DNA of 64,000 bases from Acidimicrobiia bacterium (GTDB taxonomy: Bacteria > Actinomycetota > Acidimicrobiia > IMCC26256 > BP-133): the NCBI GenBank assembly GCA_044867425.1, contig JBIOUX010000039.1, positions 15,383 through 79,382 of the forward strand. Direction: 5' to 3'. Under the pieces are notes generated by a model. The model was given only the letters and a program-made list of their open reading frames with translations. It searched no databases and was not told the origin of the DNA. Position numbers and translations under genes: made by a program. The stretch's first letter is position 1. Every line of letters begins with the position of its first letter. This document shows positions 30,105-56,580 of this stretch, in pieces.

Positions 30105-30737
30105 CTACATGGGGCGGAGGGCCATCCACACCGCCCGAGCGGTCTGGCGGCCGGGGTTTCCCCAACGGTGGGGGCGGTCGGTGCGGAAATGGACGGCGTC
30201 GCCTTTGCCCAGGCGGTACTCCCGGCCGTCGACCTCGAAGGTCATGGTCCCGTCGAGCACGAACACCAACTCCTCGCCGGGGTGCTCCATGGGGTTCTCC
30301 CCGCTCGATGCCCCCGGCTCGACCTCGGCCAGGGCGCCGGCCAGGAAGAACCGGCCGTAGGGACCGGAGATGCCCCCCAGATCGATCCCCCGGTGGGAGG
30401 TGTAGACCACCCGGCGCTCGTCGGCCGGTATGAACACCGCCGGTCCGGTCTCCTCGGCGTCCTCGTTCACGAAGTAGGCCACCGGCCGGTTGAGGGCGGC
30501 GGCCAGCTTGAGCAGGGTGGTGATGGTAGGCACCATGCCGGACCGCTCGATCTTGTGGATGGCCGCCGCCGAGACGTCGGCGCGGTCCGCCAGTTGCTGG
30601 AGCGACAGGCCCCGTTGGAGCCGCAGCTCGCGGAGCTTGGGCCCGATCGAGGTGACGATCTCGTCGAGCGAGCCGGGTGTTCCCCGGCTGGGCGGAGGGC
30701 CGCTGTCCGACCGGCCGACGGCTGCCTGCTCCTTCAC
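30105..30737 (-). CDS. XRE-family HTH regulator fused to a cupin sensor domain
   Basis: IGPKLRELRLQRGLSLQQLADRADVSAAAIHKIERSGMVPTITTLLKLAAALN (HTH_3), then cupin H.GEELVFVLDGTMTFEVDG.EY.L..GDAVHF. GTG 30737 (alternative GTG 30755). Confidence 0.85.
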   Translation of the reverse strand: MKEQAAVGRSDSGPPPSRGTPGSLDEIVTSIGPKLRELRLQRGLSLQQLADRADVSAAAIHKIERSGMVPTITTLLKLAAALNRPVAYFVNEDAEETGPAVFIPADERRVVYTSHRGIDLGGISGPYGRFFLAGALAEVEPGASSGENPMEHPGEELVFVLDGTMTFEVDGREYRLGKGDAVHFRTDRPHRWGNPGRQTARAVWMALRPM

Positions 30738-30830: not shown

Positions 30831-32033
30831 GTGGGCGTGCCGGCAAGGGTCATCGTCGTCGGAAACGGAGCTGGAGGGGTCGGCGCCACCGCGGCCGTCC
30901 GGGCCACGGACCCCGGGGCCGAGGTCAGCAACTGCTGGCCCGTCAGCGGCATCGACGTCGACCGCCGGACGGTCGACGTGGGGGGCCGGGGAGCAGCGGG
31001 CTGGGATCGCCTGATCCTCACCGCCGCGGCGTCGCCCGCCGGCCCCGCCGGGCTGCCCACCGACCTCGAGGGCCTCTATCCCGTGGCCGCCATCCCGTCG
31101 GGCAGCGACTGGGACCAGGTCCTGGCCTCGGTCAAGGTGGCGGTGGTGGTGGATGCCACCCCCGCCGGCCTGGAGATGGTGGCCACCCTGGCCTCGCGGG
31201 GCATCGAGACGCACGTGGTCGACCCGCAGGCCTCGGTTCTGGCCGGCTCAGTGGACCAGGAGATCGCCGCCCCGGTGGAGGAGTCGTGGGGCGAGATGGG
31301 CGTGAAAACCCACTTCAACACCCGGGTGGAGGACTACCTGGGCGAGGGCCGGGTGCAGGGTGTGCGCACCTCCGCGGGCGAGCTGCCCGCCGACCTGGTG
31401 GTGGTGTGCACCCGTCCGCCGGTGGCCAACGACCTGGCCGCCGCCGCCGGCCTGGAGATCTCCCCCGCCGGCGGCATCGTCGTCGATGATCACATGGCCA
31501 CCTCGCTGGCCGGGGTGTGGGCCGCCGGCGACGGCATCGAGCTGCCCGCCGGCGCCGCCCGCTTCGCCCTCCCCGACTCCCCCAGCCACGCCCACGCCCA
31601 GGGCCGGGTGGCGGGCACCAACGCCGCCGGCGGCAGCCGGACCTACCAGCCGGCCTATGTCCCCTGGGCCCTGTCGGCGGGCCGGTGGCTGATGGGCGGC
31701 GTCGCGTACGGCGAGACGCAGGCCACCGACCAGGGCGTCGCCTATGTGCTGGGCCAGGCGACGGGCATCTCCCGGGCCCGCTACTACCCGGACGTGAAGA
31801 AGGTGACGGTGAAGCTGCTGGCCGAGCCCGGTAGCCTGCGCCTGATCGGTGCGCAACTGGTGGGGGGCGAGGGCATCAAGGAGCGGGCCGGCTTCCTCGG
31901 CATGGCCGTCCGGATGGGCATCACCCTCACCGACCTCGCCTACATGGAGAACGTGTACTCCCCGCCCATCGGGGCGCTCAACGAGCCCATCGCCGTGGCC
32001 GCCCAGAACGGCCTGGCCTCCTTGGGGAGCTGA
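30831..32033 (+). CDS. Pyridine nucleotide-disulfide oxidoreductase (CoA-disulfide reductase/NADH oxidase-like), N-terminally deleted paralog
   Basis: VIVVGNGAGGVGA FAD motif, VAVVVDATPAGLEM NAD motif, AAGDGIE, and a C-terminal dimerisation domain. Aligns along its length with the 51680..53026 product but lacks ~48 aa that include its YSPCGIPY motif. Start GTG 30831 or 30837. Confidence 0.85.
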   Translation: MGVPARVIVVGNGAGGVGATAAVRATDPGAEVSNCWPVSGIDVDRRTVDVGGRGAAGWDRLILTAAASPAGPAGLPTDLEGLYPVAAIPSGSDWDQVLASVKVAVVVDATPAGLEMVATLASRGIETHVVDPQASVLAGSVDQEIAAPVEESWGEMGVKTHFNTRVEDYLGEGRVQGVRTSAGELPADLVVVCTRPPVANDLAAAAGLEISPAGGIVVDDHMATSLAGVWAAGDGIELPAGAARFALPDSPSHAHAQGRVAGTNAAGGSRTYQPAYVPWALSAGRWLMGGVAYGETQATDQGVAYVLGQATGISRARYYPDVKKVTVKLLAEPGSLRLIGAQLVGGEGIKERAGFLGMAVRMGITLTDLAYMENVYSPPIGALNEPIAVAAQNGLASLGS

Positions 32034-32035
32034 CG

Positions 32036-32344
32036 ATGAGACTGGGACTGGGACAGGGACTGGAGAAGGGACGGGGGAAAGCGTTGCAAGGAGCCCGCTG
32101 GCTGCGGTCGAACTCCGAGCACTACCTCCTCCTCGACGCCCAGACCCGCATGGCGGCCCGCTACGGGCGCCCCGCCCCGTCGCCGCCCAAGGGGGCGCGC
32201 GAGCTGTTCTGGCGCCAGGTCTTCGCCCCCACCTACCGTCGTCTCCCCTGGAAAGCCCGCCTGGCTCTCATCAACCGGATGCCCGGCAGCCACCGCCGGG
32301 ACTGGTCGAGCCGCTCTGTTCCCACCCGCCGGCCGGCCATCTGA
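32036..32344 (+). CDS. Hypothetical basic protein (102 aa)
   Basis: ATG lies 2 nt after the flavoprotein stop, so translational coupling is possible. GC3-rich from codon ~20. Sequence ...RELFWRQVFAPTYRRLPWKARLALINRMPGSHRR.... I recognise no family. Confidence 0.5.
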   Translation: MRLGLGQGLEKGRGKALQGARWLRSNSEHYLLLDAQTRMAARYGRPAPSPPKGARELFWRQVFAPTYRRLPWKARLALINRMPGSHRRDWSSRSVPTRRPAI

Positions 32345-32437: not shown

Positions 32438-32923
32438 ATGCCAAAGACCGTCACCCACAAAGTGAGTGAAGGCGACACCCTGTACAACGTCGAAGAGAAG
32501 CTCTTCGAGGACATCCGGGCCAATCCGGGTGAGCAGGCCTACGTCTTCATCCACAGCGTGCCCTACGAAGCCTCCGTGGCCCTGGTCAACCTGCTGACCT
32601 CCACCCGGCTGGTCCGCAAGGGCTTCGACGTCAAGATCGTGCTCTACGGACCGGGCGTCCTCCTCGCCTCGGGCTCCCGCGGCTACCCCTCGGTAGGCAG
32701 CGAAGCCTTCCCCGGCCACCTGGCCATCAACAACCAGATCAAGACCCTCCTCAAGGAAGGGGCCACGATCTACGCCTGCCGCTTCGCCATGGGTGCCCTC
32801 TACGGCTTCCGGGAGGACGACCTCATCGAGGGCATCACGCCCTTCAACCCCCTCGACGTCCTCGACTCCGCCCTCACCGCCTGGCGGGCGGGCGCTTTCC
32901 AGATCAACACCTGGACGGTCTGA
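32438..32923 (+). CDS. DsrE/DsrF-like fold protein; candidate MSMEG_0572/Sll0783-family member
   Basis: GAGGGAGG RBS before ATG 32438. AYVFIHSVPYEASVALVNLL....V.KGFDVKIVLYGPGV and ATIYACRFAMGALYG resemble the DsrE-like sulfur-relay fold. The MSMEG_0572 assignment rests on context and memory only. Confidence 0.7.
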   Translation: MPKTVTHKVSEGDTLYNVEEKLFEDIRANPGEQAYVFIHSVPYEASVALVNLLTSTRLVRKGFDVKIVLYGPGVLLASGSRGYPSVGSEAFPGHLAINNQIKTLLKEGATIYACRFAMGALYGFREDDLIEGITPFNPLDVLDSALTAWRAGAFQINTWTV

Positions 32924-33003: not shown

Positions 33004-33666
33004 GTGGACAGCATCGCCGACATGGGCGGGATGCAGGGCTGGGGATCGGTGCCCTACGAGCCTGACGAGCCGCCGTTCCACGAGCCGTGGGAGGGGCGGG
33101 CCTTCGCCATGACGCTCCTGGCCATCAACCGGATCTCGGGGCAGAACCTCGACGCCATGCGTCATGCCCTGGCCCGCCTCCACCCCGTCGACTATCTGGT
33201 CGACGGCTACTACGGCCGCTGGCTCAACTGCGCCGAGCTCATGCTGGTCGACAGCGGCGTTATCGCTCCCGGGGCCATCGACGCCCGGGCCCGGCGCCTG
33301 CGGGGCGAGGACGTCGAAGAACCTCCCGAGCCGGAGCTCAACAAGCCCGACTACGCCGCCACCGGGCCCGGGTCCCTGCGCCAGGTCGACGACCAGCCCC
33401 TCTTCAAGGTGGGCCAGACGGTCCGGGCCAAGGACATCCATCCCACCGGCCACACCCGCCTGCCCCGCTACGTCCGGGGCCGGACGGGGGTGGTGCAGGG
33501 CATGCACCCCGCCGCGCTGCTCCCTGACACCCACGCCCACTTCCAGGGCGAGAACGCTCAGGCCGTCTACGACGTGGCCTTCGACTCGGCTGAGCTGTGG
33601 GGTCCGGACGGGGAGAGCTTCACCCTCCACATCGACTGCTACGAGACGTATCTGGAGGAAGTCTGA
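33004..33666 (+). CDS. nthB: Nitrile hydratase beta subunit
   Basis: [14 protein letters not shown]....[18 protein letters not shown]... and C-terminal [14 protein letters not shown]...........VY.V.F...ELWG are canonical NHase-beta blocks. GTG 33004 with GAGGAGG upstream (the ORF-track start 32998 is too close to the RBS). Confidence 0.92.
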
Positions 33667-34265
33667 TGACGACCACGCCCGCCACCGAACGAATCCCCCC
33701 CTCCCTGCGGACCGAGGCCCTGGAAGCGATCCTGACCGAGCGGGGCCTCGTCGACCCGGCCGTGCTCGACAAGTTCATCTCCATGTACGAGAACGACGTC
33801 GGACCCCTCAACGGGGCCAAGGTGGTGGCCAAGGCCTGGACCGATCCGGAGTACAAGGAGCGCCTGCTGGCCGACGGCACGGCCGCCATCGCCGAGCTGG
33901 GCTACAAGGGCCCTCAGGGCGAGTGCATCGAGGTGCTGGAGAACACCCCGACGCTCCACCACCTGGTGGTGTGCACGCTGTGCTCCTGCTACCCCTGGCC
34001 CGTCCTCGGCCTGCCCCCCTCCTGGTACAAGGACCCCGCCTACCGGGCGCGGGCGGTCCGGGAGCCGCGGGCGCTCGTGGCCGAGTTCGGTCTCGAGCTC
34101 GGTGACGACGTGGAGATCCGGGTGTTCGACTCCAGCTCCGAGGTGCGCTTCATGGTGCTGCCCGAGCGGCCCCCCGGCAGTGAATCCATGTCCGAAGAGG
34201 AGCTGGCCGCCCTGGTGACCCGCGACGCCATGACGGGCATCGCCAAGGTGACGCTGCCGGCGTGA
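33666..34265 (+). CDS. nthA: Nitrile hydratase alpha subunit, cobalt type
   Basis: Metal-binding claw [20 protein letters not shown]. Thr in VC-T-LCSC and Tyr after CSC mark Co-type enzymes. The ATG overlaps the beta-subunit stop (TGATG). Confidence 0.95.
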
Positions 34266-34266
34266 C

Positions 34267-34620
34267 GTGAACCTCGACATCGCCGGCCCCGCCGCCCCGC
34301 CCCGGTCCAACGGCGAGCTGGTCTTCACGTATCCGTGGGAGAGCCGGGCCTTCGGCCTGGCCGTCACCCTGCACGCCGGCGGGGCCTTCGAGTGGGAGGA
34401 CTTCCGCCAGCAGCTCATCGCCGCGGTGGGGCGCTGGGAGGCCGACCATCCCCGGGCCGAGGGATGGTCGTACTACACCTGCTGGCTCGAGGCCCTGGAA
34501 CAGGTTCTGGCCACCGAAGGCCTCGTTCTGGCCGACGACGTCGCGTGTCGGGCCGTCGAGCTGGCCGGACGTCCGTCCAGCCATGGCCACCGCCACGACG
34601 ACCACGGGCACGGGCACTGA
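34267..34620 (+). CDS. Nitrile hydratase accessory (activator/metallochaperone) protein with a His-rich tail
   Basis: ELVFTYPWESRAFGLAVTL......W.DFRQQLIA resembles the beta-subunit N-terminus, as in NHase activators. The C-terminus is SSHGHRHDDHGHGH. GTG lies 1 nt after the alpha stop. Confidence 0.85.
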   Translation: MNLDIAGPAAPPRSNGELVFTYPWESRAFGLAVTLHAGGAFEWEDFRQQLIAAVGRWEADHPRAEGWSYYTCWLEALEQVLATEGLVLADDVACRAVELAGRPSSHGHRHDDHGHGH

Positions 34621-34627
34621 GGCGGCC

Positions 34628-35041
34628 GTGTCCGAAGGTCGCTCCAAGACGCTGTCGGTGGCGGCCACCTGGGAGGGCGGATACCGGGCCCGGATGACTG
34701 TACGGGACCATGAGCTGGTGGCCGACGAGCCGGTGGCGGCGGGTGGCGGTGACGGCGGGCCGCAGCCCAGCGAACTGTTCCTGGCTGCCCTGGCCTCCTG
34801 CTTCGCGCTGGCCATCTACCACGTCGGCAAGAAACGGGACATCCACCTGACCGACCTGTCGGTGCGGGCCACCGGTGAGTACGAGGGACCCAAGTTCGGC
34901 CGCCTCCGGCTCGAGGTCACCTCGAGCACGCCGCGGGATGTCCTCGACGGTCTGGTGGAGCGGGCCAAGTCCGTCTGCTACGTCTCCAACACGCTGCGGG
35001 CCGTCTCCGACGTCGAAGTCGTCGTGGTGGAGGATGAGTGA
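34628..35041 (+). CDS. OsmC/Ohr-family peroxiredoxin-like protein
   Basis: GGGDGGPQPSELFLAALASCFALAIYHV and KSVCYVSNTL carry the two conserved Cys of OsmC. GTG 34628 avoids overlap; in-frame ATG 34583 would overlap the accessory gene by 38 nt. Confidence 0.85.
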   Translation: MSEGRSKTLSVAATWEGGYRARMTVRDHELVADEPVAAGGGDGGPQPSELFLAALASCFALAIYHVGKKRDIHLTDLSVRATGEYEGPKFGRLRLEVTSSTPRDVLDGLVERAKSVCYVSNTLRAVSDVEVVVVEDE

Positions 35042-35117: not shown

Positions 35118-35372
35118 GTGACCGAGACCGGTTCCCGCAGCGGCTACGACAGCACCGCGGAAAAGGCTCAGGGCCAGACGAAGAAGGTCACGGGCAAGCT
35201 CAGCGACGACATGGAGAAGGCAGAGGAAGGCGCGGTTCAGGAGACCCTCGCCCAGGAGCAGAAGATCAGGCCCTCGAGCCCTGGCAGCGCCTCAAGGCGG
35301 CTGAGGAGATGGAGGACAATCCCGGCCGGTAGGTCGGGCCTGACCTCGACAGCCTCAGGCTCATCCGCCTGA
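35118..35372 (+). CDS. Small hypothetical protein (weakly CsbD-like N-terminus); 3' end uncertain
   Basis: Strong RBS GAGAGGAGGAGGA 3-8 nt before GTG 35118. AEKAQGQTKKVTGKLSDDMEKAEEG is vaguely CsbD-like. The last ~35 codons are Arg/Ser-rich and an alternative frame looks more protein-like, so a frameshift or shorter product is possible. Confidence 0.3.
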   Translation: MTETGSRSGYDSTAEKAQGQTKKVTGKLSDDMEKAEEGAVQETLAQEQKIRPSSPGSASRRLRRWRTIPAGRSGLTSTASGSSA

Positions 35373-36017
35373 AGCTGATCCGCCCTCCAGCCGCCGGCGC
35401 TGTGCCTCGATGGCCGCCGTCCACTCGGCCCTGTCCTCGAAGGACTCCTCCATGGCCAGGTCGCCGTCCGGCTCCAGCCGTTCACCGGTGACCGGGTCGA
35501 GACGGACGACCTCCAGGCGGAAGAAGGCGGCGCCGGTGTCGGGGTCGGCCTCCACCGTCTGGCTCAGCCCGGTGCCGGTAGGGACGTGCATCTCGAGCCG
35601 CACCCAGGGCACGAGACCGGCCGACGCCGGCGAGCCGGACTCGGAGACCAGGACCCAGGCGCTGCCCTCCTGGGCGGCGGCGGCCAGGCGGGCCAGGCGC
35701 TCGGCGCGGGCCGCCGGCCCGGCCAGCTCCCGGTAGCGCATGGAGAAGCCGGCCCCGGCCACCAGGTTGATGTCCAGGTCGGCCAGGGGCAGCAGGGCCA
35801 GCGACGACGCCCGGTACACGATGTCGGAGGCGTCGGGCCAGGCCGCCACCAGGGCGGGCAGGTCCCCGCAGGAGCCCAGCTCGTCGGCCACCTTGCGCAC
35901 CAGCTCGACGGCCCGCTGGTAGAGATCGGGCCGGACCATGATGACGGGATACAGGCGCTCCTCGGCCGAGCTCCAGGTCGACAGCAGCTCGGCGGGCACC
36001 CCGAGTGGGATTGTCAT
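35361..36017 (-). CDS. Hypothetical protein (218 aa)
   Basis: ATG 36017. GC3-rich with normal composition (MTIPLGVPAELLSTWSSAEERLYPVIMVRPDLYQRAVELV...). I recognise no family. The rest of the 555-aa ORF is antisense junk over arcC. Confidence 0.55.
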   Translation of the reverse strand: MTIPLGVPAELLSTWSSAEERLYPVIMVRPDLYQRAVELVRKVADELGSCGDLPALVAAWPDASDIVYRASSLALLPLADLDINLVAGAGFSMRYRELAGPAARAERLARLAAAAQEGSAWVLVSESGSPASAGLVPWVRLEMHVPTGTGLSQTVEADPDTGAAFFRLEVVRLDPVTGERLEPDGDLAMEESFEDRAEWTAAIEAQRRRLEGGSASGG

Positions 36018-36095
36018 TCGCGCCCTCCCTCTACTATCGTGAACGCGAGGTTTCTCATCCTGTATGCCGCGCCGCCAGAGGAGGGGCCCGACGCA

Positions 36096-37082
36096 ATGGG
36101 CCGGATCGTAGTCCTCGCCTTGGGAGGCAACGCCCTGTGCCCCGTCGGAGCCGCGGGGACCTACGAGGAGCAGGAGCACAACGCCGCCCTCATGGCCCGC
36201 TCCGTCTGCTCGCTCATGTGGACGGGCTGGGACGTCGTGGTCGTGCACGGCAACGGCCCCCAGGTGGGCAACCTGGCCATCCAGCAGGAGGAGGGCTCGG
36301 ACCTCGTCCCGGCCCAGCCTCTCTTCGTCCTGGGCGCCATGACACAGGGCCAGCTCGGCAGCCTCCTCACCCTGGCCCTGCGCAAGGTGGCCGGTCCCCG
36401 GGGGCCCGACGTCGTGTCGGTGGTCACCCACGCCCTGGTCGACCCGGCCGATCCCGCCTTCTCCGACCCGACCAAGCCCATCGGGCCGTTCATGACGGCC
36501 GAGGAGGCGAAGGAGAACGCCGCCGCCCGGGGCTGGACAGTCAAAGAGGACGCGGGGCGGGGCTGGCGCCGGGTGGTGCCCTCCCCTGAGCCCCTGGGGC
36601 TCCTGGAGGCCCCCGCCATCCGGGCCCTGCTGGGGGAAGGCTTCCTCGTGGTGGCCGGTGGCGGCGGGGGCATTCCCCTTGTCCCCACCCGCGACGGGTA
36701 CCGGGGCGTGGAGGCGGTGATCGACAAGGACTACGCCGCCGCCGCCCTGGCCACCTCGCTCGGCGCTTCGGCCCTGGTGTTGGTGACGAGCGTGGAGTCG
36801 GTCCTCCTCGACTACGGCACCCCCGAGCAGCGGCCGGCGGAGGAGATGACCCTGGAAGACGCCGAGCGCCACCTGCACGACGGCCAGTTCCCCGAGGGCA
36901 GCATGGGCCCCAAGGTGCGCTCCGCCACCCGGTTCCTGCGGGCCGGCGGCGAGACCGCCGTCATCACCACCCCGGCGCTGGTCTACGCCTCCCTGGAAGG
37001 CACGGTGTCGGAGCTGGAGGGCCATCACGGGACCCGGATCGTGCGGTTGCGCCAGGTCGAAACGGAGAGCCCCCTGCTGTGA
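36096..37082 (+). CDS. arcC: Carbamate kinase
   Basis: RIVVLALGGNAL...VVVVHGNGPQVG...KPIGPF...GW.V.EDAGRGWRRVVPSP.P......I..L...G..VVAGGGGGIP...G.EAVIDKD.A...LA are canonical carbamate kinase blocks. Confidence 0.92.
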   Translation: MGRIVVLALGGNALCPVGAAGTYEEQEHNAALMARSVCSLMWTGWDVVVVHGNGPQVGNLAIQQEEGSDLVPAQPLFVLGAMTQGQLGSLLTLALRKVAGPRGPDVVSVVTHALVDPADPAFSDPTKPIGPFMTAEEAKENAAARGWTVKEDAGRGWRRVVPSPEPLGLLEAPAIRALLGEGFLVVAGGGGGIPLVPTRDGYRGVEAVIDKDYAAAALATSLGASALVLVTSVESVLLDYGTPEQRPAEEMTLEDAERHLHDGQFPEGSMGPKVRSATRFLRAGGETAVITTPALVYASLEGTVSELEGHHGTRIVRLRQVETESPLL

Positions 37083-38281
37083 CGCTGCCCGTCCTGCTCG
37101 TGGCCCACTCCACCCGGCCCCGGGGCGGCCTGGTGCACACCCTGTTCCTGGCCGAGGCCCTCCACCGCCTGGGCCAGCCCGTCGGTCTGGTGGCCCTGGG
37201 CGACCCGGCCGAGGGCCTGTTCCGGGCCACGGCCGTGCCCCACACGATCCTGCCCTCCCCGCCGCCGGCCCCGACGCTGGAGGAACGGGTGTTCGCCGCC
37301 GTCGACGCCCTGGAAGACGGGCTGCGGGGTCTGGTCAAGGGGCCCACCATCCTCCACGCCCAGGACTGCATCGCGGCCCGGGCCGCCGGGCGCATCCGCG
37401 ACGCCGACCGCTTCCCCGCCCTGACCGGTGTGCGCATCGTCCGCACCGTCCACCACTGCGACGACTTCACCACCGAGATCCTGGTCGAGTGCCAGCGCCG
37501 CTCCATCCACGACCCCGACCGGGTGCTGGTGGTGAGCCGGCAGTGGCAGGACATCCTGGCTGCCGACTACGACGTGAAGGCCGACATCGTGGCCAACGGC
37601 ATCGACCCGGATCGCTTCGGCCCGGCCGTTCCCGGTCAGCGGGATGAGCTCCGTTCCCGGCTGGGCGTGGGCGACGGCGGGTTCTTCGTGTTGACGGTGG
37701 GCGGCATCGAACCCCGCAAGGGGACCGCCACCCTGTTCGAGGCGCTGGCGGTTTTGAAGAGCCGCCTCGCCGTGGCCCCCGTGCTCGGCATCGTGGGCGG
37801 CCACTCCTTCCAGGACTACAAGGCGTACCGGGACGCCGCCCTGGCCCGCCTGCCCGAGCTCGGCCTGGAACTGGGACGGGACGTCGTCCTCCTCGGCACC
37901 GTCTCCGATGAAGAGCTCGGCGGCTGGTACCGGGCCGCCGACGCCTTCGCCTTCCCCTCGGTCAAGGAGGGCTTCGGCCTGGTGGTGCTGGAGGCGATGG
38001 CGATGAGTCTCCCCGTGGTGGCGACCGACATCCCCGTCTTCGCCGAGTACCTGACCGACGGGAAGAATGCCCTCCTGGCGCCGGCCGGTGACGCCACCGG
38101 CCTGGCCGGCGCCCTGGAACGGCTGGCCACCGACCCGGCGTTACGGGAGCGTCTGGTCGCCGGCGGCGCCGACGTGGTGGGCCGCTTCACCTGGGAAGCC
38201 AGCGCCCGTCGCCACATCGACATCTACGCCGCCGTGGAAGAGACGCAGAAGCTGCCGTCCGTCCCGTCCGTCCTGGAGTAG
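37079..38281 (+). CDS. GT4-family glycosyltransferase (candidate MSMEG_0565-type)
   Basis: C-terminal GT-B motif FAFPSVKEGFGLVVLEAMAMSLPVVATDIPVFAEY. The GTG start overlaps the arcC stop (GTGA). Confidence 0.88.
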   Translation: MTLPVLLVAHSTRPRGGLVHTLFLAEALHRLGQPVGLVALGDPAEGLFRATAVPHTILPSPPPAPTLEERVFAAVDALEDGLRGLVKGPTILHAQDCIAARAAGRIRDADRFPALTGVRIVRTVHHCDDFTTEILVECQRRSIHDPDRVLVVSRQWQDILAADYDVKADIVANGIDPDRFGPAVPGQRDELRSRLGVGDGGFFVLTVGGIEPRKGTATLFEALAVLKSRLAVAPVLGIVGGHSFQDYKAYRDAALARLPELGLELGRDVVLLGTVSDEELGGWYRAADAFAFPSVKEGFGLVVLEAMAMSLPVVATDIPVFAEYLTDGKNALLAPAGDATGLAGALERLATDPALRERLVAGGADVVGRFTWEASARRHIDIYAAVEETQKLPSVPSVLE

Positions 38282-38327
38282 GTGGTCGCGTTCCTCCCCC
38301 TCACAGGGGGTCAAGCGCGACCACCTT
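38280..38327. repeat. 48-bp palindromic intergenic repeat element, copy 2 (inverted relative to copy 1)
   Basis: AGGTGGTCGCGTTCCTCCCCCTCACAGGGGGTCAAGCGCGACCACCTT. Outer stem AGGTGGTCGCG/CGCGACCACCT and inner hairpin CCCCC-TCACA-GGGGG. It starts inside the TAG stop of the glycosyltransferase. Confidence 0.75.
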
Positions 38328-38355
38328 GGGCACGGGTCCCGGCGATAATTCCGGC

Positions 38356-38943
38356 ATGGATCAGGCACGGGGCAAGCACTTGAGCATCGTCGACTACGAC
38401 GCGACGTGGCCGGCCAGATTCAAGGACATCGGCGCCGCTCTGCGCGAGAGGCTCGGGGAGCACGCTCTCCGGGTCGACCACATCGGATCGACCGCCGTTC
38501 CCGGTCTGGCGGCGAAGGACGTCATCGACATCCAGGTGACGGTGGCGTCTCTCGATGCGGCGGACTGCTGGCCGGACGAGCTGCTGCCGAACCTGACGCG
38601 GAAGTACCGGGGAACCGCCGACGATCACGTTCCTCCCGGGGCGACGGGGGATCCCCGCCAGTGGACGAAGCACCTCTGGTCCGAGAGGTTGGCGATCCAC
38701 GTCCACGTGCGGGAGGACGGCCGGCTGAACCAGCGCTACGCGCTGCTGTTCCGTGACTACCTGCGAGCCGACGCCACCGCAGCCGGCGCCTACGGGCTCC
38801 TGAAGCGCGCCCTTGCGGACGTGGTGGCCGATGACTGGGACACCTATTACGCCGACAAGGATCCCGCCCGCGATCTGATCATGGCGGGCGCCGAGCAGTG
38901 GGCGCTCCGCACCGGTTGGACGCCAGGACCGACCGACGCCTAG
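38356..38943 (+). CDS. GrpB-family (UPF0157) nucleotidyltransferase-fold protein
   Basis: IVDYDATWPARF......L.......ALRVDHIGSTAVPGLAAKDVIDIQV is typical GrpB. Confidence 0.85.
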   Translation: MDQARGKHLSIVDYDATWPARFKDIGAALRERLGEHALRVDHIGSTAVPGLAAKDVIDIQVTVASLDAADCWPDELLPNLTRKYRGTADDHVPPGATGDPRQWTKHLWSERLAIHVHVREDGRLNQRYALLFRDYLRADATAAGAYGLLKRALADVVADDWDTYYADKDPARDLIMAGAEQWALRTGWTPGPTDA

Positions 38944-38981
38944 CCGCAGCAGCGGCAGCGGCAGCGGCAAGACTGGAAACC

Positions 38982-39353
38982 ATGCTGAGCATCGGGACGG
39001 TCGTCATGGGCGTGGGGGACCTGCGCCGCGCCGTGGACTTCTGGACACGGGCGCTCAACTACGTGCCGAAACGCGAGATCACCGCCGAGGACGACTTCGT
39101 CATCCTCGTTCCGGCAGCCGGCGACGGTACCCACGTGGCGCTCGATGTCAGCGAGACGCCCCCGCAGCCGTACCCCCGGGTCCATCTCGACCTGTACGCC
39201 GGCGATGCCGCCGACCAGGTCGCCGAGGTGGAGCGGCTCGTCTCGCTCGGTGCGCGGCGTGTCGATTGGGACCGGTACCCGGAGGATGCTGACTTCATCG
39301 TCCTCGCCGACCCCGAGGGCAACCGGTTCTGCGTCATCGACACCCAGCGCTGA
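38982..39353 (+). CDS. VOC/glyoxalase-family protein
   Basis: IGTVVMGVGDLRRAVDFWTRALNY..., HLDLYA... and LADPEGNRFCVI are glyoxalase-fold beta-alpha-beta-beta-beta modules. Confidence 0.85.
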   Translation: MLSIGTVVMGVGDLRRAVDFWTRALNYVPKREITAEDDFVILVPAAGDGTHVALDVSETPPQPYPRVHLDLYAGDAADQVAEVERLVSLGARRVDWDRYPEDADFIVLADPEGNRFCVIDTQR

Positions 39354-39395
39354 GGGAACGTTCGAGGTCGGCGGGTCCACCGCCCGCCGCCGGCC

Positions 39396-40430
39396 CTAGG
39401 AGCTCGCCGTGTCCTCGTCGAAGACGCGGCTCTTGAGCAGGTCCTCGGCTTCGATGCGCATCAGGTCGTCGCGGCCCACCTGGCGCTTCCCGCCGGAGAC
39501 GAGCCGGTTGGCGTGGCGGAGCCGGGCCCGCTCCAGGGCGTTGCGGACGGACCGGGCGTTGGCGAAGCGGGGCTGGATGCGGCGCCGCTCCAGGTAGTCC
39601 CGGAAGGCCTCCTGGGCCTCGGGGGAGAGCTCGTAGCGCTGCTCGGTGAGCATGAGGTCGCCGATGGCCAGCAGCTCGTCGAGGCCGTACTCGGGGAAGT
39701 CGATGTGGTGGGCGATGCGGGAGCTCATCCCCGGGTTGGACTGGAAGAAGGTGTCCATCCGGTCCTTGTAGCCGGCGAGGATGACGACGAGATCCTCCCG
39801 CTGGTTCTCCATCACCTGGAGGAGGATCTCGATCGCCTCCTGGCCGTAGTCCCGCTCGTTCTCCGCCCGGTGCAGGTAATAGGCCTCGTCGATGAACAGC
39901 ACCCCGCCCATGGCCCGGCGCAGCACGTCCCTGGTCTTGGGTGCGGTGTGCCCGATGTACTGGCCCACCAGCTCGTCCCGGGTGACCGACACCAGGTGGC
40001 CCTTGCCCAGGTAGCCCAGGCTGTGGAGCAGCTCCCCCATCCGCATGGCCACCGTGGTCTTGCCCGTCCCCGGAGGGCCGGTGAAGGACATGTGGAGCGT
40101 GGGCCGGGTGGAGTCGAGCCCGAAGCGGCACCGGAGGCGGTCGACGAGGAGGAGGGCGGCGATCTCCCGGATGCGGGTCTTGACCGGCACCAGCCCGACC
40201 AGCTCCCGGTCGAGGCGGTCGAGGACGGCGTCGACCTCGAGGGAGCGCCGCTCGGCGTCGATGTCGACCAGGGCGTCAGCCGCCAGCGGCTCGTCCTCCT
40301 CCGGTGCCGGCTCTGCCTCCTTGTTCTCCTCCGGTTCCGTCCGGACGTCGGGTTGGCGGCCGCCGGGCGCGGGCACGGCGAAGCCGAAGCGGGCCCCGCC
40401 CCCGCCGTTGGCCGCGCCGTCACCCGTCAT
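39396..40430 (-). CDS. cbbX: CbbX, AAA+ red-type RuBisCO activase
   Basis: [28 protein letters not shown], Walker [12 protein letters not shown], Walker [26 protein letters not shown]. Sits directly downstream of cbbS. Confidence 0.93.
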
Positions 40431-40433
40431 CCG

Positions 40434-40862
40434 TCACTGCCCGTTGGTGTAGCGCTCGCCGGGCGGGCGGTCGGCGGCGTAGGGGTGGAGGGTGTAGCGG
40501 ATCCGGCGGTCGGCGCTCGCCTGGCGCTCCAGGCGGAAGCCGGGCTCGTTGGGCGGCCGGTTGACCAGGAAGGACAGGCCCGTCGTCTGGCGGCCCAGGC
40601 GGGCGTCGTAGGCGCTCACCCGGATGTACTGGTTGGGGAAGGCCTCCCGGCACTTGCGCACCTCCTGGAGGACGGCGGCCGGGTCGGAGATGTCGAACAT
40701 GGGCAGCCCCCACATCTCCCAGTAGGCGTTGCGGGGGTGGGGGTCGTCGGTGAACTCCACGGCCAGAGCCCAGCCGTTCTCGATGGCGTAGTTGGCCTGG
40801 GCGCCGATCTCGTCGTCGGTCAGATCGGGCAGGTAGGAGAAGGTGCCTTGGGTGAGCCGCAT
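40434..40862 (-). CDS. cbbS: RuBisCO small subunit (red-type, with C-terminal extension)
   Basis: [21 protein letters not shown]....[25 protein letters not shown] is canonical. 142 aa. Confidence 0.93.
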
Positions 40863-40878
40863 GGATGCTCCGCTCCTC

Positions 40879-42393
<1,515 letters not shown>

Positions 42394-42515
42394 TCACCAC
42401 CAACCATTAAGTCTCTGTTTATGACTCCCGGTAAGTACGCGAAACGCGGGGCGATGAGTTTCGGGCGCCCCAATCGTCGGTACCAGCGAAGACGAAGCCG
42501 GCGACAGGAGAAGCC

Positions 42516-42989
42516 ATGCCCAAGATCACCCCCAACCTCTGGTTCGACACGGAAGGACAGGAGGCGGCCGAGTTCTACGTGTCGGTCTTTCCGAACTCGA
42601 AGATCACCAACGTCACCCACTACACCGAGGCCGGCCCGCGACCGGCCGGCACCGTGCTGACCGTCGAGTTCGTCCTCGACGGGCAGGAGTTCGTCGCCAT
42701 CAACGGCGGCCCGGAGTTCACGTTCGACGAGGCGATCTCCCTCATGATCACCTGCGAGGACCAGGACGAGATCGACTACTACTGGGCCAAGCTCTCCGAA
42801 GGCGGCGAAGAGGGGCCGTGCGGTTGGCTCAAGGACCGCTACGGCCTGTCCTGGCAGGTCGTCCCGGGCGGCATGGCCGACGCGCTCAACGACCCGGACC
42901 AGGGCCGCGCCACGCGCGCCATGACGGCGATGCTGGGCATGAAGAAGATCGACATCGCCGCCCTCCAGGCCGCCGCTGATCAGGCCTGA
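42516..42989 (+). CDS. VOC-family protein (PhnB / 3-demethylubiquinone-9 3-methyltransferase-domain type)
   Basis: MPKITPNLWFD..G.EAAEFYVSVFPNSKI..........G....V..VEF.L.GQ.F.AINGGP.F.F.EAIS....C..Q.E.D.YW.KL......CGWLKDRYG.SWQVVP. Confidence 0.85.
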   Translation: MPKITPNLWFDTEGQEAAEFYVSVFPNSKITNVTHYTEAGPRPAGTVLTVEFVLDGQEFVAINGGPEFTFDEAISLMITCEDQDEIDYYWAKLSEGGEEGPCGWLKDRYGLSWQVVPGGMADALNDPDQGRATRAMTAMLGMKKIDIAALQAAADQA

Positions 42990-43963
42990 GGCGGCAGGCC
43001 GGTGACGGGCTCGGCGGTCAGGTCGATGACCGTGGCCGTCTCCGCTCCCAGGCGGGCCCGCAGCAGGCCGGAATCGTCGATGGTGCCCACCACGGCGGCG
43101 TCCAGGCCCCGTTCCAGGAACGGGCGGGCACAGTCCTCCTCCTGGCCCGGCGGGGCGCACAGGAGGAAGGCGAAGCAGGGAAAGGACACCACCCAGGCGG
43201 ACAGCGACACCCCGGTTGGCTGGGGCAGGGCGTCGAGGTCGACGGTGACCCCGAGGCGGTGGCATTCCAGGAGCATGGCCAGGGATCCGAGCAGGCCGGG
43301 CATGCTCACGTCCTTGGCCGCCACCGCCGCCCCCGACTCGGCCACCGCGGCCAGGGTGCGGACGTCACCGCCCAGCCGGGTGCCCCGGGCGTCGAAGGAG
43401 GCGAAGAACGGGAAGTCGGCCCGCATGGTGCCCTGGGTGCAGCAGGCCACCAGCAGGCTCTGGCCGGCGGCGGCGTGGCGGGCGGCGAGCACCGGTCCAT
43501 CGGCCCGGCCCAGGCCGAAGGCCGACAGGGCCGGGGGACCGTCGCGCACGGTCAGGTGCCCGCCCACCACCGGCACCTGGTAGAGCATGGAGGCGTGGCG
43601 CATGCCCTCCAGGGCCTTGCGAGCCACCAGCTCGGGGCCGGTGACGGTGTCGACCACGGCCAGGGGCCGGGCGCCCATGGCGGCCAGGTCGTTGACGTTG
43701 GCCAGCACGGCGGCCACGCCGGCACCGAAGGGGTCGGCCTCCAGGAACGGCGGCCAGATGGCCTCGCCCCCGACCACCATGGTGGCCTCCTTGTCGACCA
43801 CCACGGCCCCGTCGTCGCCCGGCCCGGCCAGCCAGTCCCCCGCCCCCAGCACCTCGCCCACCAGGGCGATGGGCGCCTTGTTGCGCAGGCCGGGATGGGC
43901 GCGCACGGCGGCCACCACCGATTCCAGGGTGGCGCTCGTGGTCAGCGCCTGCTCGAGGGCCAT
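42980..43963 (-). CDS. AIR-synthase-related (PurM-like) protein, candidate sll0787/MSMEG_0571 family
   Basis: PurM-type N-domain GPGDDGAVV....MVVGGEAI.P.F...DPFGAGVAAVLANVNDLAAMGARPLAVVD and C-domain KDVSMPGLLGSLAMLLE. Lies 9 nt downstream of fdrA. Confidence 0.85.
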   Translation of the reverse strand: MALEQALTTSATLESVVAAVRAHPGLRNKAPIALVGEVLGAGDWLAGPGDDGAVVVDKEATMVVGGEAIWPPFLEADPFGAGVAAVLANVNDLAAMGARPLAVVDTVTGPELVARKALEGMRHASMLYQVPVVGGHLTVRDGPPALSAFGLGRADGPVLAARHAAAGQSLLVACCTQGTMRADFPFFASFDARGTRLGGDVRTLAAVAESGAAVAAKDVSMPGLLGSLAMLLECHRLGVTVDLDALPQPTGVSLSAWVVSFPCFAFLLCAPPGQEEDCARPFLERGLDAAVVGTIDDSGLLRARLGAETATVIDLTAEPVTGLPPQA

Positions 43964-45538: not shown

Positions 45539-45714
45539 ATCCGCCTCCGATTCGAGCCATAATCCCCGCCCGGCTCCCGCTCGCCGCCGCCGAAGCTCGG
45601 TCGGCGGCAGTGGGCGTCGCGTGGCGGATAGGAAAAACAGCGTTCACCATAGGAGACGGCACCCCATCTGACAAGCGTCTATCGTTCGGACGCTCTCTGA
45701 CGCGTTTCTTATGG

Positions 45715-45744
45715 TTGACGCCCATGTCGGAAAGTAGTTAGATT
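45715..45744 (+). promoter_or_regulatory. Candidate promoter TTGACG-N18-TAGATT for the radical-SAM operon
   Basis: TTGACG at 45715-45720 and TAGATT at 45739-45744, in an AT-enriched divergent intergenic region ~30 nt upstream of GTG 45774 (RBS GAGGGAGG). Confidence 0.35.
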
Positions 45745-45773
45745 TCACGCCTGGCTGCGAGAGGGAGGTCGAC

Positions 45774-47426: not shown

Positions 47427-47432
47427 GGTGCC

Positions 47433-48836: not shown

Positions 48837-48927
48837 CCTGCCTGACGGCGGAGGGACCGCCCGGCCCGCCGCCTCCAAGGAACTTGTGCGTTTTTTGCCA
48901 GCAATCACTGGCAGAAAGCCCACAAGA

Positions 48928-50794: not shown

Positions 50795-50879
50795 GTGGGG
50801 AGGAAAAGTGCGGCGCAACGGCCGGGAATCGGCTCGCCGGACTTGACTACTAAACTGAATGCCTGTCTACTATCGTCCT

Positions 50880-56477: not shown

Positions 56478-56495
56478 TCGCCACGCTTCGAGCGT

Positions 56496-56580
56496 GCGGA
56501 AGGGGGGATTTGAACCCCCACGCCCTGACGGGCACTAGCACCTCAAGCTAGCGCGTCTGCCTGATTCCGCCACTTCCGCG
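56496..56580 (-). tRNA. tRNA-Leu (anticodon GAG), type II with long variable arm
   Basis: Minus strand GCGGAAG-TG-GCG-GAATCAGGCAGA-CGC-G-CTAGC-TTGAGGT-GCTAG-TGCCCGTCAGGGCGT-GGGGG-TTCAAAT-CCCCC-CTTCCGC-A. 7-bp acceptor stem, T-loop TTCAAAT, anticodon loop T-T-GAG-G-T. No encoded CCA. Confidence 0.9.

Follow-up and report, generated by a model that had tools for sequence, protein, structure and literature searches.

A carbamate kinase–glycosyltransferase gene pair in a nitrilase-less sister type of the Nit1C gene cluster

The Nit1C (or gpr) gene cluster was defined in 2005 (PMC1199592) and has since been linked with the assimilation of cyanide, with nitrogen starvation, and with resistance to peroxide (PMC1199592, PMC7815647, PMC6039565). 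Those enzymes of the Nit6803 family that have been characterized are true nitrilases whose substrates are unsaturated nitriles (PMC7815647); they are not known decarbamoylases. A second system described in the literature is the AllFGH/AllK module of Escherichia coli, whose biochemistry has been published and in which AllFGH phosphorolyzes oxalurate to carbamoyl phosphate and AllK uses carbamoyl phosphate and ADP to form ATP (PMC11326118, PMC9843812). Here, we compare both systems with a locus in a 64-kb stretch of DNA (the window; positions below refer to it, and + or − gives the strand), where a carbamate kinase (CK) gene at 36096–37082 (+) overlaps a glycosyltransferase (GT) gene at 37079–38281 (+).

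The 328-aa product of 36096–37082 is predicted to be a carbamate kinase (EC 2.7.2.2) of the amino-acid kinase fold. It passes the model NF009007 (277.6 against a cut-off of 266), matches PF00696 (78.2 against 24.9), and falls just under the stricter equivalog model TIGR00746 (332 against 358.25). Its best match in the PDB is 1E19 (283 bits), and alignment with the solved CKs 1E19, 3KZF, and 1B7B shows that the motifs GGNA, HGNGPQVG, PTKP (PTKPxGP), IDKD, and GSMGPK are all intact. For the 400-aa GT, an earlier reading made from the letters alone (the sequence-only reading) had proposed the type expected in MSMEG_0565–0572 clusters, and the family model agrees: the protein scores 343.7 bits on TIGR04047 (cut-off 259.85), has the Pfam domains Glyco_transf_4 and Glycos_transf_1 of the GT4 GT-B architecture, and carries the EX7E motif as EGFGLVVLE at residues 297–305. 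Its relatives are labeled “MSMEG_0565 family glycosyltransferase” by PGAP, and both in the window and in these relatives the gene (GT0565 below) co-occurs with the MSMEG_0568 radical SAM (rSAM) gene, the MSMEG_0567 GNAT gene, and related cluster genes. A generic cell-wall or mycothiol GT4 identity was ruled out, with TIGR04047 passed and the second-best model, MshA, at 107.2 against a cut-off of 462.5.

Read directly from the sequence, the CK opens with ATG at 36096–36098 and closes with TGA at 37080–37082, and the GT runs from a GTG at 37079–37081 to a TAG at 38279–38281. The stop and start codons thus share the four bases GTGA (37079–37082, +), as the sequence-only reading had described when it placed both genes in one transcription unit; since the overlap is real, the two form a two-gene unit. 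The GT start is well supported. Its frame has been open since 36590, and 37079 is the earliest ATG, GTG, or TTG within it; therefore, a longer version of the GT is impossible. In addition, GT residue 6 aligns to position 3 of the TIGR04047 model, the relatives share the N-terminus V-T-x-x-V-x-L-V-A-H-S-T-K/R-P-R-G, and a GGAG lies at 37064–37067, 11 nt 5′ of the start. We note that four-base RTGA overlaps are the most frequent junctions in operons and that such an overlap is ordinary when taken alone. What goes beyond chance is the conserved linkage of CK and GT0565, not the overlap as such. RTGA junctions are also found at CK/AllF and AllF/GT in relatives, and an equivalent four-base CK/GT overlap is present in other relatives that lack AllF at this site (TTGA in locus L093).

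At the 5′ side of the CK, a 76-bp divergent intergenic region is associated with a promoter-like site (TTGTCA-18-TATCGT, 36011–36040, +), which is a consensus match only and the sole sigma-70-like match between 34.5 and 39.5 kb, where shuffled sequences average 0.1. Directly after the GT stop, a strong hairpin without a T tract (38280–38326, +; −36.2 kcal/mol, z = −5.2) coincides with an inverted repeat (I4), and none of 200 shuffles folds equally well; it is likely to be the end of the transcription unit. The promoter-like site and the hairpin flank the CK-GT pair on both sides.

The CK-GT operon belongs to a single ~23-kb cluster, from about 30.1 to 53.0 kb, that is split into two halves by an inserted RuBisCO/GrpB/glyoxalase block. 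The sequence-only reading had counted the operon as a second, physically separate pairing of a carbamoyl-phosphate gene with a Nit1C-type gene, some 6 kb from the core locus. The pairing holds, but the two cases are halves of the same cluster. Its left edge is formed by an HTH_3 and cupin regulator (PuuR-like; 30105–30737, −), which is kept in relatives, in a Methylocystis plasmid, and in the operons of a low-GC lineage. This is followed by a shortened copy of a pyridine-nucleotide-disulfide oxidoreductase resembling CoA-disulfide reductase (CoADR-like; 30831–32033, +; 49% identical to the flavoprotein of the Methylocystis cluster) and by the small conserved protein h93 (32036–32344, +), which has no family match, is 47% identical to a 92-aa Methylocystis protein, and always comes directly after the flavoprotein. 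Next come an MSMEG_0572/Sll0783-family protein (32438–32923, +; TIGR04044 201.9, cut-off 109.85), the beta and alpha subunits of nitrile hydratase with an accessory protein (33004–34620, +; Pfam NHase_beta_N/C and NHase_alpha on the identical contig L001), which also lie within the cluster in several relatives, and an OsmC-family protein (34583–35041, +) conserved in the Methylocystis and low-GC clusters. Divergent from the CK is unk218 (35361–36019, −), without a family match, whose 113 homologs are all hypothetical proteins; it adjoins the CK in many relatives and AllF-GT in the Methylocystis plasmid, and its AF2 model is confident (pLDDT 91) and without a PDB fold match.

In the right half, an AIR-synthase-like (AIRS-like) protein resembling sll0787 (42980–43963, −; AIRS and AIRS_C domains; TIGR04049 239.3, below the cut-off of 321.3) lies beside an FdrA/AllF homolog (43973–45538, −; NF004760 411.5, slightly below the cut-off of 433). 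On the other strand are the MSMEG_0568-family rSAM protein (45774–46913, +; TIGR04043 391.6 against 303.7), the MSMEG_0567/Sll0786-family GNAT (46914–47426, +; TIGR04045 103.6 against 68.45), an AllG/YahG homolog (DUF1116; 47433–48836, +; PF06545 209.6), and an AllH homolog (DUF2877; 48928–49710, +; PF11392 83.8 against 25). A phosphosulfolactate synthase (ComA/XcbB-like; 50859–51683, +) that is conserved in the clusters of relatives precedes the right edge, where a full-length copy of the CoADR-like flavoprotein (51680–53026, −) is 59% identical to its counterpart in the Methylocystis cluster.

Compared with Nit1C (MSMEG_0565–0572; sll0783–0787; nitC of Pseudomonas), the cluster in the window shares five families, namely GT0565, the MSMEG_0568 rSAM, the MSMEG_0567 GNAT, the sll0787-like AIRS protein, and 0572, four of which pass the NCBIfam cut-offs, with the AIRS-like protein below. 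In contrast to Nit1C, it has no Nit6803 nitrilase, no 0569 flavoprotein, no small 0570 protein, and no Pnap_2097, and it adds AllF, AllG, AllH, the CK, the CoADR-like flavoprotein with its small partner, OsmC, the cupin regulator, nitrile hydratase, and CoM-type genes. The flavoprotein and small protein sit where 0569 and 0570 would in Nit1C. A tblastn search with two cluster nitrilases found no Nit6803-type nitrilase in the window or in any locus of the CK clade, and homologs of MSMEG_0569, MSMEG_0570, and Pnap_2097 were likewise absent from the window and from every locus of this CK type. Conversely, canonical Nit1C clusters with a nitrilase (Allorhizobium pAtS4e and the loci L151 and L159) have neither CK nor AllF, so that this CK and the nitrilase are exclusively distributed. 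Because the nitrilase, MSMEG_0569, MSMEG_0570, and Pnap_2097 are absent, the cluster is not a strict Nit1C cluster (Podar et al. 2005, PMC1199592) but a nitrilase-less sister type, which keeps the core of rSAM, GNAT, AIRS-like protein, 0572, and GT and has the nitrilase set swapped for an AllFGH-type carbamoyltransferase and a CK. Nitrile hydratase is often also present in clusters of the sister type.

The other described counterpart is allF-allG-allH-allK of E. coli with its paralog yahE-yahF-yahG-yahI, which comprise the same four families as the module in the window (FdrA-type, DUF1116/AllG, DUF2877/AllH, and CK). Identities between the window module and the E. coli All and Yah proteins are 33–42%, and the window proteins are equally near to both paralogs (36–42%): the AllF homolog is 39% identical to AllF and 37% to YahF, the AllG homolog is 38% identical to AllG and 36% to YahG over its full length, and the CK is 42% identical to AllK and 41% to both YahI and YqeA. 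In a neighbor-joining tree without support values, none of these three E. coli CKs groups within the clade of the window's CK. Further points of likeness are the AllG subunit of the window, which has the longer, YahG-like architecture, and the CK gene, which directly abuts the FdrA-type gene in relatives. The window differs from the E. coli systems in that the module is interleaved with rSAM, GNAT, AIR-synthase-like, 0572, and GT4 genes. Also, unlike the E. coli all operon, it has no purine-catabolic neighbors: Pfam scans of the main predicted ORFs outside the cluster, together with the cluster annotation, gave no allB, allC, allD, or allE in the 64 kb. Therefore, oxalurate cannot be assumed as the substrate, and oxalurate derived from allantoin is unlikely.

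The arcABC operons contain a CK of the same family, but the window has neither an arginine deiminase (ADI, arcA) nor an ornithine carbamoyltransferase (OTCase, arcB) gene by Pfam scans of the main predicted ORFs, and neither is among the conserved gene families of the CK-clade loci. The statement of the sequence-only reading that arginine deiminase and ureide genes are missing is thus correct for ADI, but it overlooked the allF, allG, and allH homologs at 43973–49710. With these, all three subunit families of oxamate carbamoyltransferase are present, 7–12.6 kb from the CK (AllF being the one below its cut-off). By genomic context, the CK is the AllK/YahI-type partner of this AllFGH-like carbamoyltransferase.

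To place the pair among its relatives, we compared 26 loci of the CK clade with 57 outgroup loci, which are not phylogenetically independent. Of the 26 clade loci, 21 have GT0565 no more than 10 kb from the CK, compared with 1 of the 57 outgroup loci, that single case being a generic GT with 29% identity. Similarly, AllF is near the CK in 22/26 clade loci (2/57 in the outgroup) and the rSAM gene in 17/26 (0/57), and AllF lies directly 3′ of the CK in 20 of the 26. All relatives whose CK is at least 53% identical have AllF, GT0565, rSAM, GNAT, and AIRS. The order CK-AllF-GT0565, joined in most cases by RTGA overlaps, is found in ~40 relatives in the Actinomycetota (17–20 genome loci and 18 metagenome contigs, from both Acidimicrobiia and Actinomycetes), where these triads adjoin MSMEG_0568 radical SAM, MSMEG_0567 GNAT, sll0787-like, MSMEG_0572, AllG, and AllH genes. 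The direct neighbor of the window's CK was thus ancestrally allF, which in the window lineage is displaced by ~7 kb, so that the CK directly abuts the GT. AllF is missing from the CK/GT site in the close relatives L084, L092, and L093 and in JGI contigs as well; in L084, the only close relative with enough flanking sequence, it lies beside the AIRS-like gene. Since AllF left this position, both genes have been under purifying selection, with a dN/dS of 0.19 for the CK (measured against L084) and of 0.24 for the GT.

Outside the Actinomycetota, a low-GC lineage of Dadabacteria/Thermodesulfobacteriota carries the families in a single operon, AIRS–cupinR–AllG–AllF–CK–0572–rSAM–DSOR–h93–x–GT–OsmC, with all scores above cut-off (GT 400.3, CK 385.2, rSAM 325.2, 0572 176.2, FdrA 494.9). 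Together with the triads, this separate operon supports the earlier proposal that the link of carbamoyl-phosphate and Nit1C-type genes is more than coincidence. What had been set against that proposal, a generic GT with arcC orthologs in ADI or allantoin operons, was found in neither part: the CKs that have an OTCase (16 loci) or ADI (8 loci) gene as neighbor are distant relatives only, with at most 50% identity.

A further form is found on the Methylocystis iwaonis plasmid pSS37A-Re-1, where AllF is followed by GT0565 (54% and 50% identical to those of the window) and where AllG (56%), 0572, the flavoprotein with its small partner, a cupin protein, OsmC, an unk218-like protein, ComA, and the rSAM-GNAT-AIRS core are also present. 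Unlike the window, it retains a Nit6803 nitrilase and Pnap_2097, and no CK or AllH was found within 55 kb of the cluster. We found no description of this cluster in the literature, and it is annotated gene by gene. It is an intermediate, hybrid form, in which AllF and AllG can work without a dedicated CK. Since it combines AllF, AllG, and GT0565 with a nitrilase in the absence of a CK, the swap of nitrilase for AllFGH and CK is not absolute.

Taken as a whole, the explanation that we favor, with moderate confidence, is that the pair is a remnant of the coupled triad, set in a nitrilase-less sister type of Nit1C that uses a phosphorolytic carbamoyl module. The CK-GT operon would derive from a translationally coupled CK–AllF–GT0565 unit, and the move of allF to the other half of the cluster would have left the four-base overlap at CK/GT. 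The AllFGH-like complex may phosphorolyze the carbamoyl–N bond of a ureido or acyl-urea intermediate to carbamoyl phosphate, from which, with ADP, the CK would form ATP, NH3, and CO2. The GT would glycosylate the small molecule of the same pathway, as presumed in Nit1C. An analogy to such a substitution is the decarbamoylation of N-carbamoylputrescine, where one lineage takes the step through an amidase of the nitrilase superfamily and another through putrescine carbamoyltransferase and CK, the second route yielding ATP. The transferase of that route has the OTCase fold, whereas that of the window is of the FdrA/AllG/AllH type. By analogy, we hypothesize that the AllFGH and CK step is equivalent to the nitrilase step, such that a phosphorolytic, ATP-conserving route stands in for the hydrolytic C–N cleavage of the canonical clusters. 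The GO terms given by the curators of the Nit1C families mark the cluster as probably biosynthetic, an annotation that fits a purely catabolic reading less easily.

The same enzymes could also run in the anabolic direction, with the CK making carbamoyl phosphate from carbamate and ATP and a reversed AllFGH-like complex carbamoylating an amide or amine intermediate; the amide formed by nitrile hydratase, for example, would become an acyl-urea or ureido group on a glycosylated, N-rich metabolite made by the rSAM, GNAT, AIRS-like, and GT proteins. The sequence itself does not discriminate direction. Synthesis would suit the biosynthetic annotation of the Nit1C-type families, the translational coupling of the CK to a biosynthetic-type GT4, and the best structural relative of the CK, the P. 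furiosus enzyme 1E19, which was long discussed as a carbamoyl-phosphate-synthesizing CK. The oxamate carbamoyltransferase reaction is reported to be readily reversible (PMC11326118); however, all characterized modules of CK and AllFGH are catabolic (PMC9843812, PMC11326118), and the canonical Nit1C families have been named and studied as nitrogen-starvation responses (PMC6039565), for which spending nitrogen and ATP on a ureide is less intuitive. We regard this direction as possible but rather unlikely. It is very unlikely, in our view, that the cluster makes or recycles a small sulfur-containing antioxidant or cofactor, with CK and AllFGH in the side role of removing or adding a carbamoyl protecting group or of recovering nitrogen. 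Its parts would be the GT4, which behind TIGR04047 has MshA and BshA among its best models, the GNAT, the DsrE-like 0572 protein, the flavoprotein with its likeness to CoA-disulfide reductase, the conserved OsmC, and CoM-type ComA/XcbCDE. The Nit1C cluster of M. smegmatis does confer peroxide resistance and raise NADPH/NADP (PMC6039565), and ComA, XcbD-, XcbC-, and XcbE-like genes occur in the clusters of many relatives. Nevertheless, these Xcb matches are below cut-off and are resemblances only (XcbD 586 against 600, XcbC 422 against 575, XcbE 227 against 450), XcbC/D/E-like genes are absent from the 64-kb window and were not found in the searched flanks on the low-GC contigs, and no thiol-forming step was identified in the cluster.

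The reading of the CK as an enzyme of general nitrogen or energy metabolism (arginine, cyanate, or carbamate handling) that a chance rearrangement joined to the GT is scarcely credible and already largely refuted by synteny. The CK and the GT do adjoin directly as the result of a derived rearrangement found only in the close relatives of the window, and four-base overlaps are common in operons generally, but before the rearrangement the CK and GT were already in one coupled triad kept across two actinobacterial classes, and in another phylum and in another gene order the CK again occurs with GT0565, rSAM, and 0572. Nor did the Pfam scans of the window's main predicted ORFs give an ADI or OTCase gene, such contexts being those of distant CKs.

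A broader idea, which we consider speculative and unlikely, is that the sister type is a second widespread type of Nit1C whose pathway interconverts carbamoyl (–CO–NH2) and cyano (–C≡N) groups on a small glycosylated metabolite. In this scheme, the AIR-synthase-like protein would resemble its superfamily relative HypE in using ATP to dehydrate a carbamoyl group to a nitrile. The carbamoyl group would be delivered or recovered by AllFGH and CK by way of carbamoyl phosphate, and nitrilase or nitrile hydratase would take the cyano form. If true, this would explain nitrilase, nitrile hydratase, and CK as alternative partners of one rSAM/GNAT/AIRS/GT core, and the carbamoyl-phosphate module would show what chemistry the entire Nit1C family performs.

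The sister type is a conserved and undescribed nitrilase-free relative of Nit1C that carries its own carbamoyl-phosphate enzymes. It extends the AllFGH/AllK module, newly defined in 2022–2024, beyond purine catabolism and offers a testable chemical hint, i.e., that these clusters may process a carbamoyl, ureido, or amide C–N unit. Cultured carriers exist in Pseudonocardia oceani (KRD185, L017) and P. asaccharolytica.

Direct reading of positions 35900-38400 of the window, whose G+C content is 72%, reveals two open reading frames: one from an ATG at 36096 to a TGA at 37080-37082, and the other from a GTG at 37079 to a TAG at 38279-38281. The four bases GTGA at 37079-37082 are common to the stop of the first and the start of the second, confirming the overlap described in the sequence-only reading. 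The start of the second frame is well supported: the frame is open from 36590 but holds no ATG, GTG, or TTG before 37079, which rules out an upstream start; the alignment to the family model TIGR04047 begins at residue 6; and the N-terminal peptide matches that of the relatives' proteins. The first frame encodes a carbamate kinase (CK) of 328 amino acids that matches PF00696, passes NF009007 (277.6; cut-off, 266), and scores slightly below the cut-off of TIGR00746 (332; cut-off, 358.25). The solved structures closest to it are all carbamate kinases (top, 1E19 at 283 bits), and its GGNA, HGNGPQVG, PTKP, IDKD, and GSMGPK motifs are intact. The second frame encodes a protein of 400 amino acids with the two-domain GT4 architecture and an EX7E motif. 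This glycosyltransferase (GT) scores 343.7 bits against TIGR04047, the MSMEG_0565 family (cut-off, 259.85), and the second-best model, MshA, reaches 107 against a cut-off of 462, which bears out its earlier assignment to the MSMEG_0565 type.

The sole promoter-like site in the 5 kb scanned lies at 36011-36040, and folding places a hairpin immediately 3' of the GT stop (-36.2 kcal/mol, z -5.2); together, these predicted elements appear to bracket CK and GT as a two-gene unit. The hairpin has no T tract, and no T-tract terminator was found in the scan. An Rfam scan of the whole window found no riboswitch or leader upstream of CK, its sole match being a tRNA at 56495-56579 on the minus strand. 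Relative to L084, a locus from a close relative whose CK is 92% identical, dN/dS is 0.19 for CK and 0.24 for GT, and both genes are still under purifying selection.

The pair is part of a large conserved cluster that has five families in common with Nit1C, the MSMEG_0565-0572-type cluster named for the Nit6803 nitrilase. Upstream of CK are an HTH-cupin regulator (30105-30737, minus strand), a CoA-disulfide-reductase (CoADR)-like flavoprotein (30831-32033), a small conserved protein (32036-32344), an MSMEG_0572/Sll0783-family protein (32438-32923; TIGR04044, 201.9 against a cut-off of 109.85), nitrile hydratase beta, alpha, and accessory genes (33004-34620), OsmC (34583-35041), and, divergent from CK on the minus strand, the conserved hypothetical gene unk218 (35361-36019). 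Farther downstream are an sll0787-like AIR-synthase-related protein (AIRS; 42980-43963) and an FdrA/AllF homologue (43973-45538), followed by the MSMEG_0568 radical SAM protein (TIGR04043, 391.6 vs 303.7), the MSMEG_0567 GNAT protein (103.6 vs 68.45), AllG (PF06545, 209.6), AllH (PF11392, 83.8), a class I aldolase, ComA (50859-51683), and a second, full-length copy of the flavoprotein (51680-53026). Genes identical to those of the window, which belongs to an Acidimicrobiia MAG, are present on GCA_044866285.1. The two flavoprotein paralogues differ: the copy at 30831-32033 is ~45 residues shorter near its N-terminus and is the more diverged, with 49% identity to the Methylocystis protein against 59%.

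Between GT and AIRS, a block at 38326-42989 comprising GrpB, a glyoxalase, CbbX-RbcS-RbcL of a form I RuBisCO, and a 3-dmu-9_3-mt protein divides the cluster into two halves. The sequence-only reading had taken these halves for two separate cases of a carbamoyl-phosphate gene paired with a Nit1C-type gene. However, L084 has the RuBisCO block in common with the window and lacks GrpB and the glyoxalase; therefore, the two halves are one cluster broken by insertions. In L014, a distant Pseudonocardia locus, a class I aldolase and RbcL lie within 10 kb of the CK and AIRS genes. The same reading had stated that neither arginine deiminase nor ureide genes accompany CK. The former part stands: no arginine deiminase, OTCase, or allantoin enzyme turned up when the main ORFs predicted outside the cluster were scanned against Pfam. 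The latter is wrong: the AllF, AllG, and AllH homologues, the sole ureide-type genes in the window, are CK's natural partners. With these two corrections, the earlier interpretation is supported overall.

Scanning one genome per species with CK returned 80 loci. Where the contig was long enough, all relatives with at least 53% identity to the window CK carried window-type AllF, GT, radical SAM, GNAT, or AIRS-like genes within 10-kb flanks; this set spans Acidimicrobiia, Pseudonocardia, Micromonosporaceae, Kribbellaceae, and Actinophytocola. Among relatives no more than 50% identical, AllF/AllG homologues were nearby in three loci (L026, L061, and L063) and a 29%-identical generic GT4 in one (L036), and the others lacked all of these genes. 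In a neighbour-joining tree (without support values), the cluster-associated CKs form one clade. Counted over loci that are phylogenetically non-independent, GT lies near CK in 21/26 clade loci against 1/57 in the outgroup, AllF in 22/26 against 2/57, radical SAM in 17/26 against 0/57, and GNAT in 19/26 against 0/57. Outgroup CKs had an OTCase neighbour in 16 loci and an arginine deiminase neighbour in 8. Among plasmids, the best CK match was 48% identical.

In eleven outgroup loci of Aminicenantes/Clostridia type (L028, L032, L036, L038, L044, L046, L050, L052, L056, L072, and L081), a conserved ORF of ~434 amino acids with weak P-loop (CobW-like) matches at most lies immediately 5' of CK, and an ORF of ~308 amino acids, probably OTCase, is mostly found downstream.

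The commonest gene order is CK-AllF-GT: AllF immediately follows CK in 20 of the 26 clade loci, GT immediately follows AllF in 17, and at each junction the genes usually overlap by four bases, ATGA or GTGA. The window and its nearest relatives (CK at least 91% identical) have no AllF between CK and GT. AllF instead adjoins the AIRS-like gene in the window and also in L084, the only close relative whose flanks are long enough to show this. Since the ancestral CK/AllF and AllF/GT junctions are both RTGAC, exactly the GTGA overlap of the window would result if AllF were cleanly lost from between them. The CK-GT pair is descended from a coupled CK-AllF-GT unit. Among the nearest relatives, the junction is TTGA in L093, a 4-base overlap in one JGI contig, and a short gap in two others. 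In L084 (ENA ERZ27256841 k141_1463489), a 270-bp array at 10978-11248 places ~ten tandem copies of the 27-bp unit CCCCGGGGCACGGGGTGTCCCCGAAGG between the CK stop and GT, with one frame continuing into GT; this repeat was not found in the window or in the related loci L092 and L093.

Searching plasmids with GT returned two kinds of cluster. Canonical Nit1C clusters, such as that of Allorhizobium pAtS4e, have the order 0572-nitrilase-rSAM-GNAT-AIRS-GT-0570-0569-Pnap_2097 (rSAM, radical SAM; four-digit numbers, MSMEG families) and lack CK and AllF, and their GT is 38% identical to that of the window. The plasmid of Methylocystis iwaonis carries a hybrid, in which a nitrilase-rSAM-GNAT-AIRS-Pnap_2097 operon and an unk218-like gene are accompanied by AllF (54% identical to the window protein) followed by GT (50%), AllG (56%), 0572, the flavoprotein and its small partner, a cupin protein, OsmC, and ComA-DUF7714-XcbD/E/C-like genes. 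No CK or AllH was found within 55 kb of this hybrid, and no close CK on the plasmid. Compared with Nit1C, the window cluster has AllFGH, CK, the CoADR-like flavoprotein, the small protein, OsmC, and the cupin regulator in place of the nitrilase/0569/0570 set, and additionally carries nitrile hydratase and ComA. Using tblastn with the canonical proteins, we found no homologue of the nitrilase, 0569, 0570, or Pnap_2097 in the window or in any CK-clade genome locus; the metagenome contigs that bear CK likewise showed none. As the defining nitrilase is absent, the cluster does not count as Nit1C, strictly speaking.

Searching metagenomes with the Methylocystis GT as seed yielded four classes of context. 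In 18 further high-GC contigs, the CK-AllF-GT triad lies beside rSAM, GNAT, AIRS, and ComA/XcbD. Six low-GC contigs (0.37-0.49) carry the same-strand operon AIRS-cupinR-AllG-AllF-CK-0572-rSAM-flavoprotein-small protein-(331-aa ORF)-GT-OsmC, in which GT (400.3), CK (385.2, TIGR00746), rSAM (325.2), 0572 (176.2), and FdrA (494.9) all score above the curated cut-offs; the cluster mates of this CK are named as Dadabacteria/Thermodesulfobacteriota MAGs. Two contigs (L151 and L159) hold clusters of the canonical nitrilase type, which lack CK and AllF, and two high-GC contigs (L138 and L146) have the order GT-ComA-XcbC-like-XcbD-like(-CK). The low-GC operon thus shows CK and AllFG again linked to MSMEG_0565/0568/0572-type genes, in a distant phylum and under another gene order; no other observation argues more strongly that the link is functional. 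On L138, CK is present and 44% identical, and L146 ends right after XcbD; AllF, rSAM, and AIRS homologues were not detected on either contig. In the low-GC operon, the 331-aa ORF (8959-9954 in L140, with equivalents in L132-L141) lies immediately 5' of GT with a 14-nt overlap and has no NCBIfam match, and the match of a short downstream ORF (11541-11996) to FdrA is confined to FdrA's N-terminal ~100 residues.

The AllFGH genes allow comparison with a characterized system. In E. coli, AllF, AllG, and AllH constitute oxamate carbamoyltransferase and share an operon with AllK, a catabolic carbamate kinase (PMC11326118, PMC9843812). E. coli also has a paralogous module, yahE-yahF-yahG-yahI, and the window proteins are 33-42% identical to both sets. 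AllK, YahI, and YqeA of E. coli fall far outside the cluster-associated CK clade in the neighbour-joining tree (without support values). The C-terminal ~50 residues of E. coli AllF (L087) align with the N-terminus of window AllG (47433-47590), and YahG carries the same N-terminal extension; this correspondence indicates that a segment has probably shifted between subunits, separating the All from the Yah/window architecture. The succinyl-CoA-synthetase-like phosphohistidine motif GH[AS]G is absent from both window and E. coli AllF, and we propose no phosphohistidine mechanism. The closest case among the open-access papers and bioRxiv preprints searched is in nitrifiers, where allFGHK adjoins triuret and biuret genes, which shows that the module can pass from one nitrogen-compound pathway to another (PMC12625717).

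If the window proteins act as E. coli AllFGH and AllK do, the AllFGH-like complex would phosphorolytically split a carbamoyl–N bond in an intermediate of the pathway, and CK would convert the resulting carbamoyl phosphate to ATP, NH3, and CO2. Such a route would stand in for the hydrolytic C–N cleavage that the nitrilase performs in canonical clusters, while conserving energy. Agmatine catabolism offers a parallel, as an analogy only, in that a nitrilase-superfamily N-carbamoyl amidase and a carbamoyltransferase with CK serve as alternatives there. We hold the genomic conclusions with high confidence and this biochemistry, taken as a whole, with moderate confidence.

A phosphorolytic route agrees with what is reported on canonical clusters in nitrogen starvation (PMC6039565). 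Three facts weaken this reading: the Methylocystis hybrid combines AllF/AllG with a nitrilase and lacks CK, oxalurate-forming genes are absent from the window, and characterised Nit6803-family enzymes are true nitrilases (PMC7815647). The pathway may also run in the anabolic direction, with CK making carbamoyl phosphate that is used to carbamoylate an amide, in keeping with the reversibility of the transcarbamoylase reaction (PMC11326118).

Every gene family involved is already known, PGAP names each gene singly, and the allFGH-allK module and the Nit1C cluster have each been described; we therefore rate the cluster as assembled from known kinds rather than categorically new. Among open-access papers and bioRxiv preprints, we found none that connects carbamate kinase, FdrA, or DUF1116 to Nit1C-type genes, and no description of the nitrilase-less cluster type.

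Coenzyme M biosynthesis homologues are regular in the relatives' clusters (L006, L012, L015, L022, L024, L086, L090/L094, and many metagenome contigs), comprising ComA/XcbB and XcbC-like (422 vs 575 bits), XcbD-like (586 vs 600), and XcbE-like (227 vs 450) proteins. The window keeps only ComA of this set; XcbC/D/E-like genes were looked for there and not found. Together with the CoADR-like flavoprotein, OsmC, and the DsrE-like 0572 protein, these genes hint at sulfur or thiol chemistry. The gene unk218 has 113 homologues, belongs to no Pfam or NCBIfam family, and recurs beside CK, or beside AllF-GT, in Actinomycetota and on the Methylocystis plasmid. A confident AF2 model (pLDDT 91.2) shows a five-strand sheet with four helices and a further helix at the C-terminus, and has no PDB fold match at E ≤ 0.001. 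Unrelated to the CK-GT finding, the window also encodes an encapsulin shell protein (Linocin_M18, 274.8 bits; 20938-21744, minus strand) and a di-haem cytochrome c peroxidase (10436-11455).
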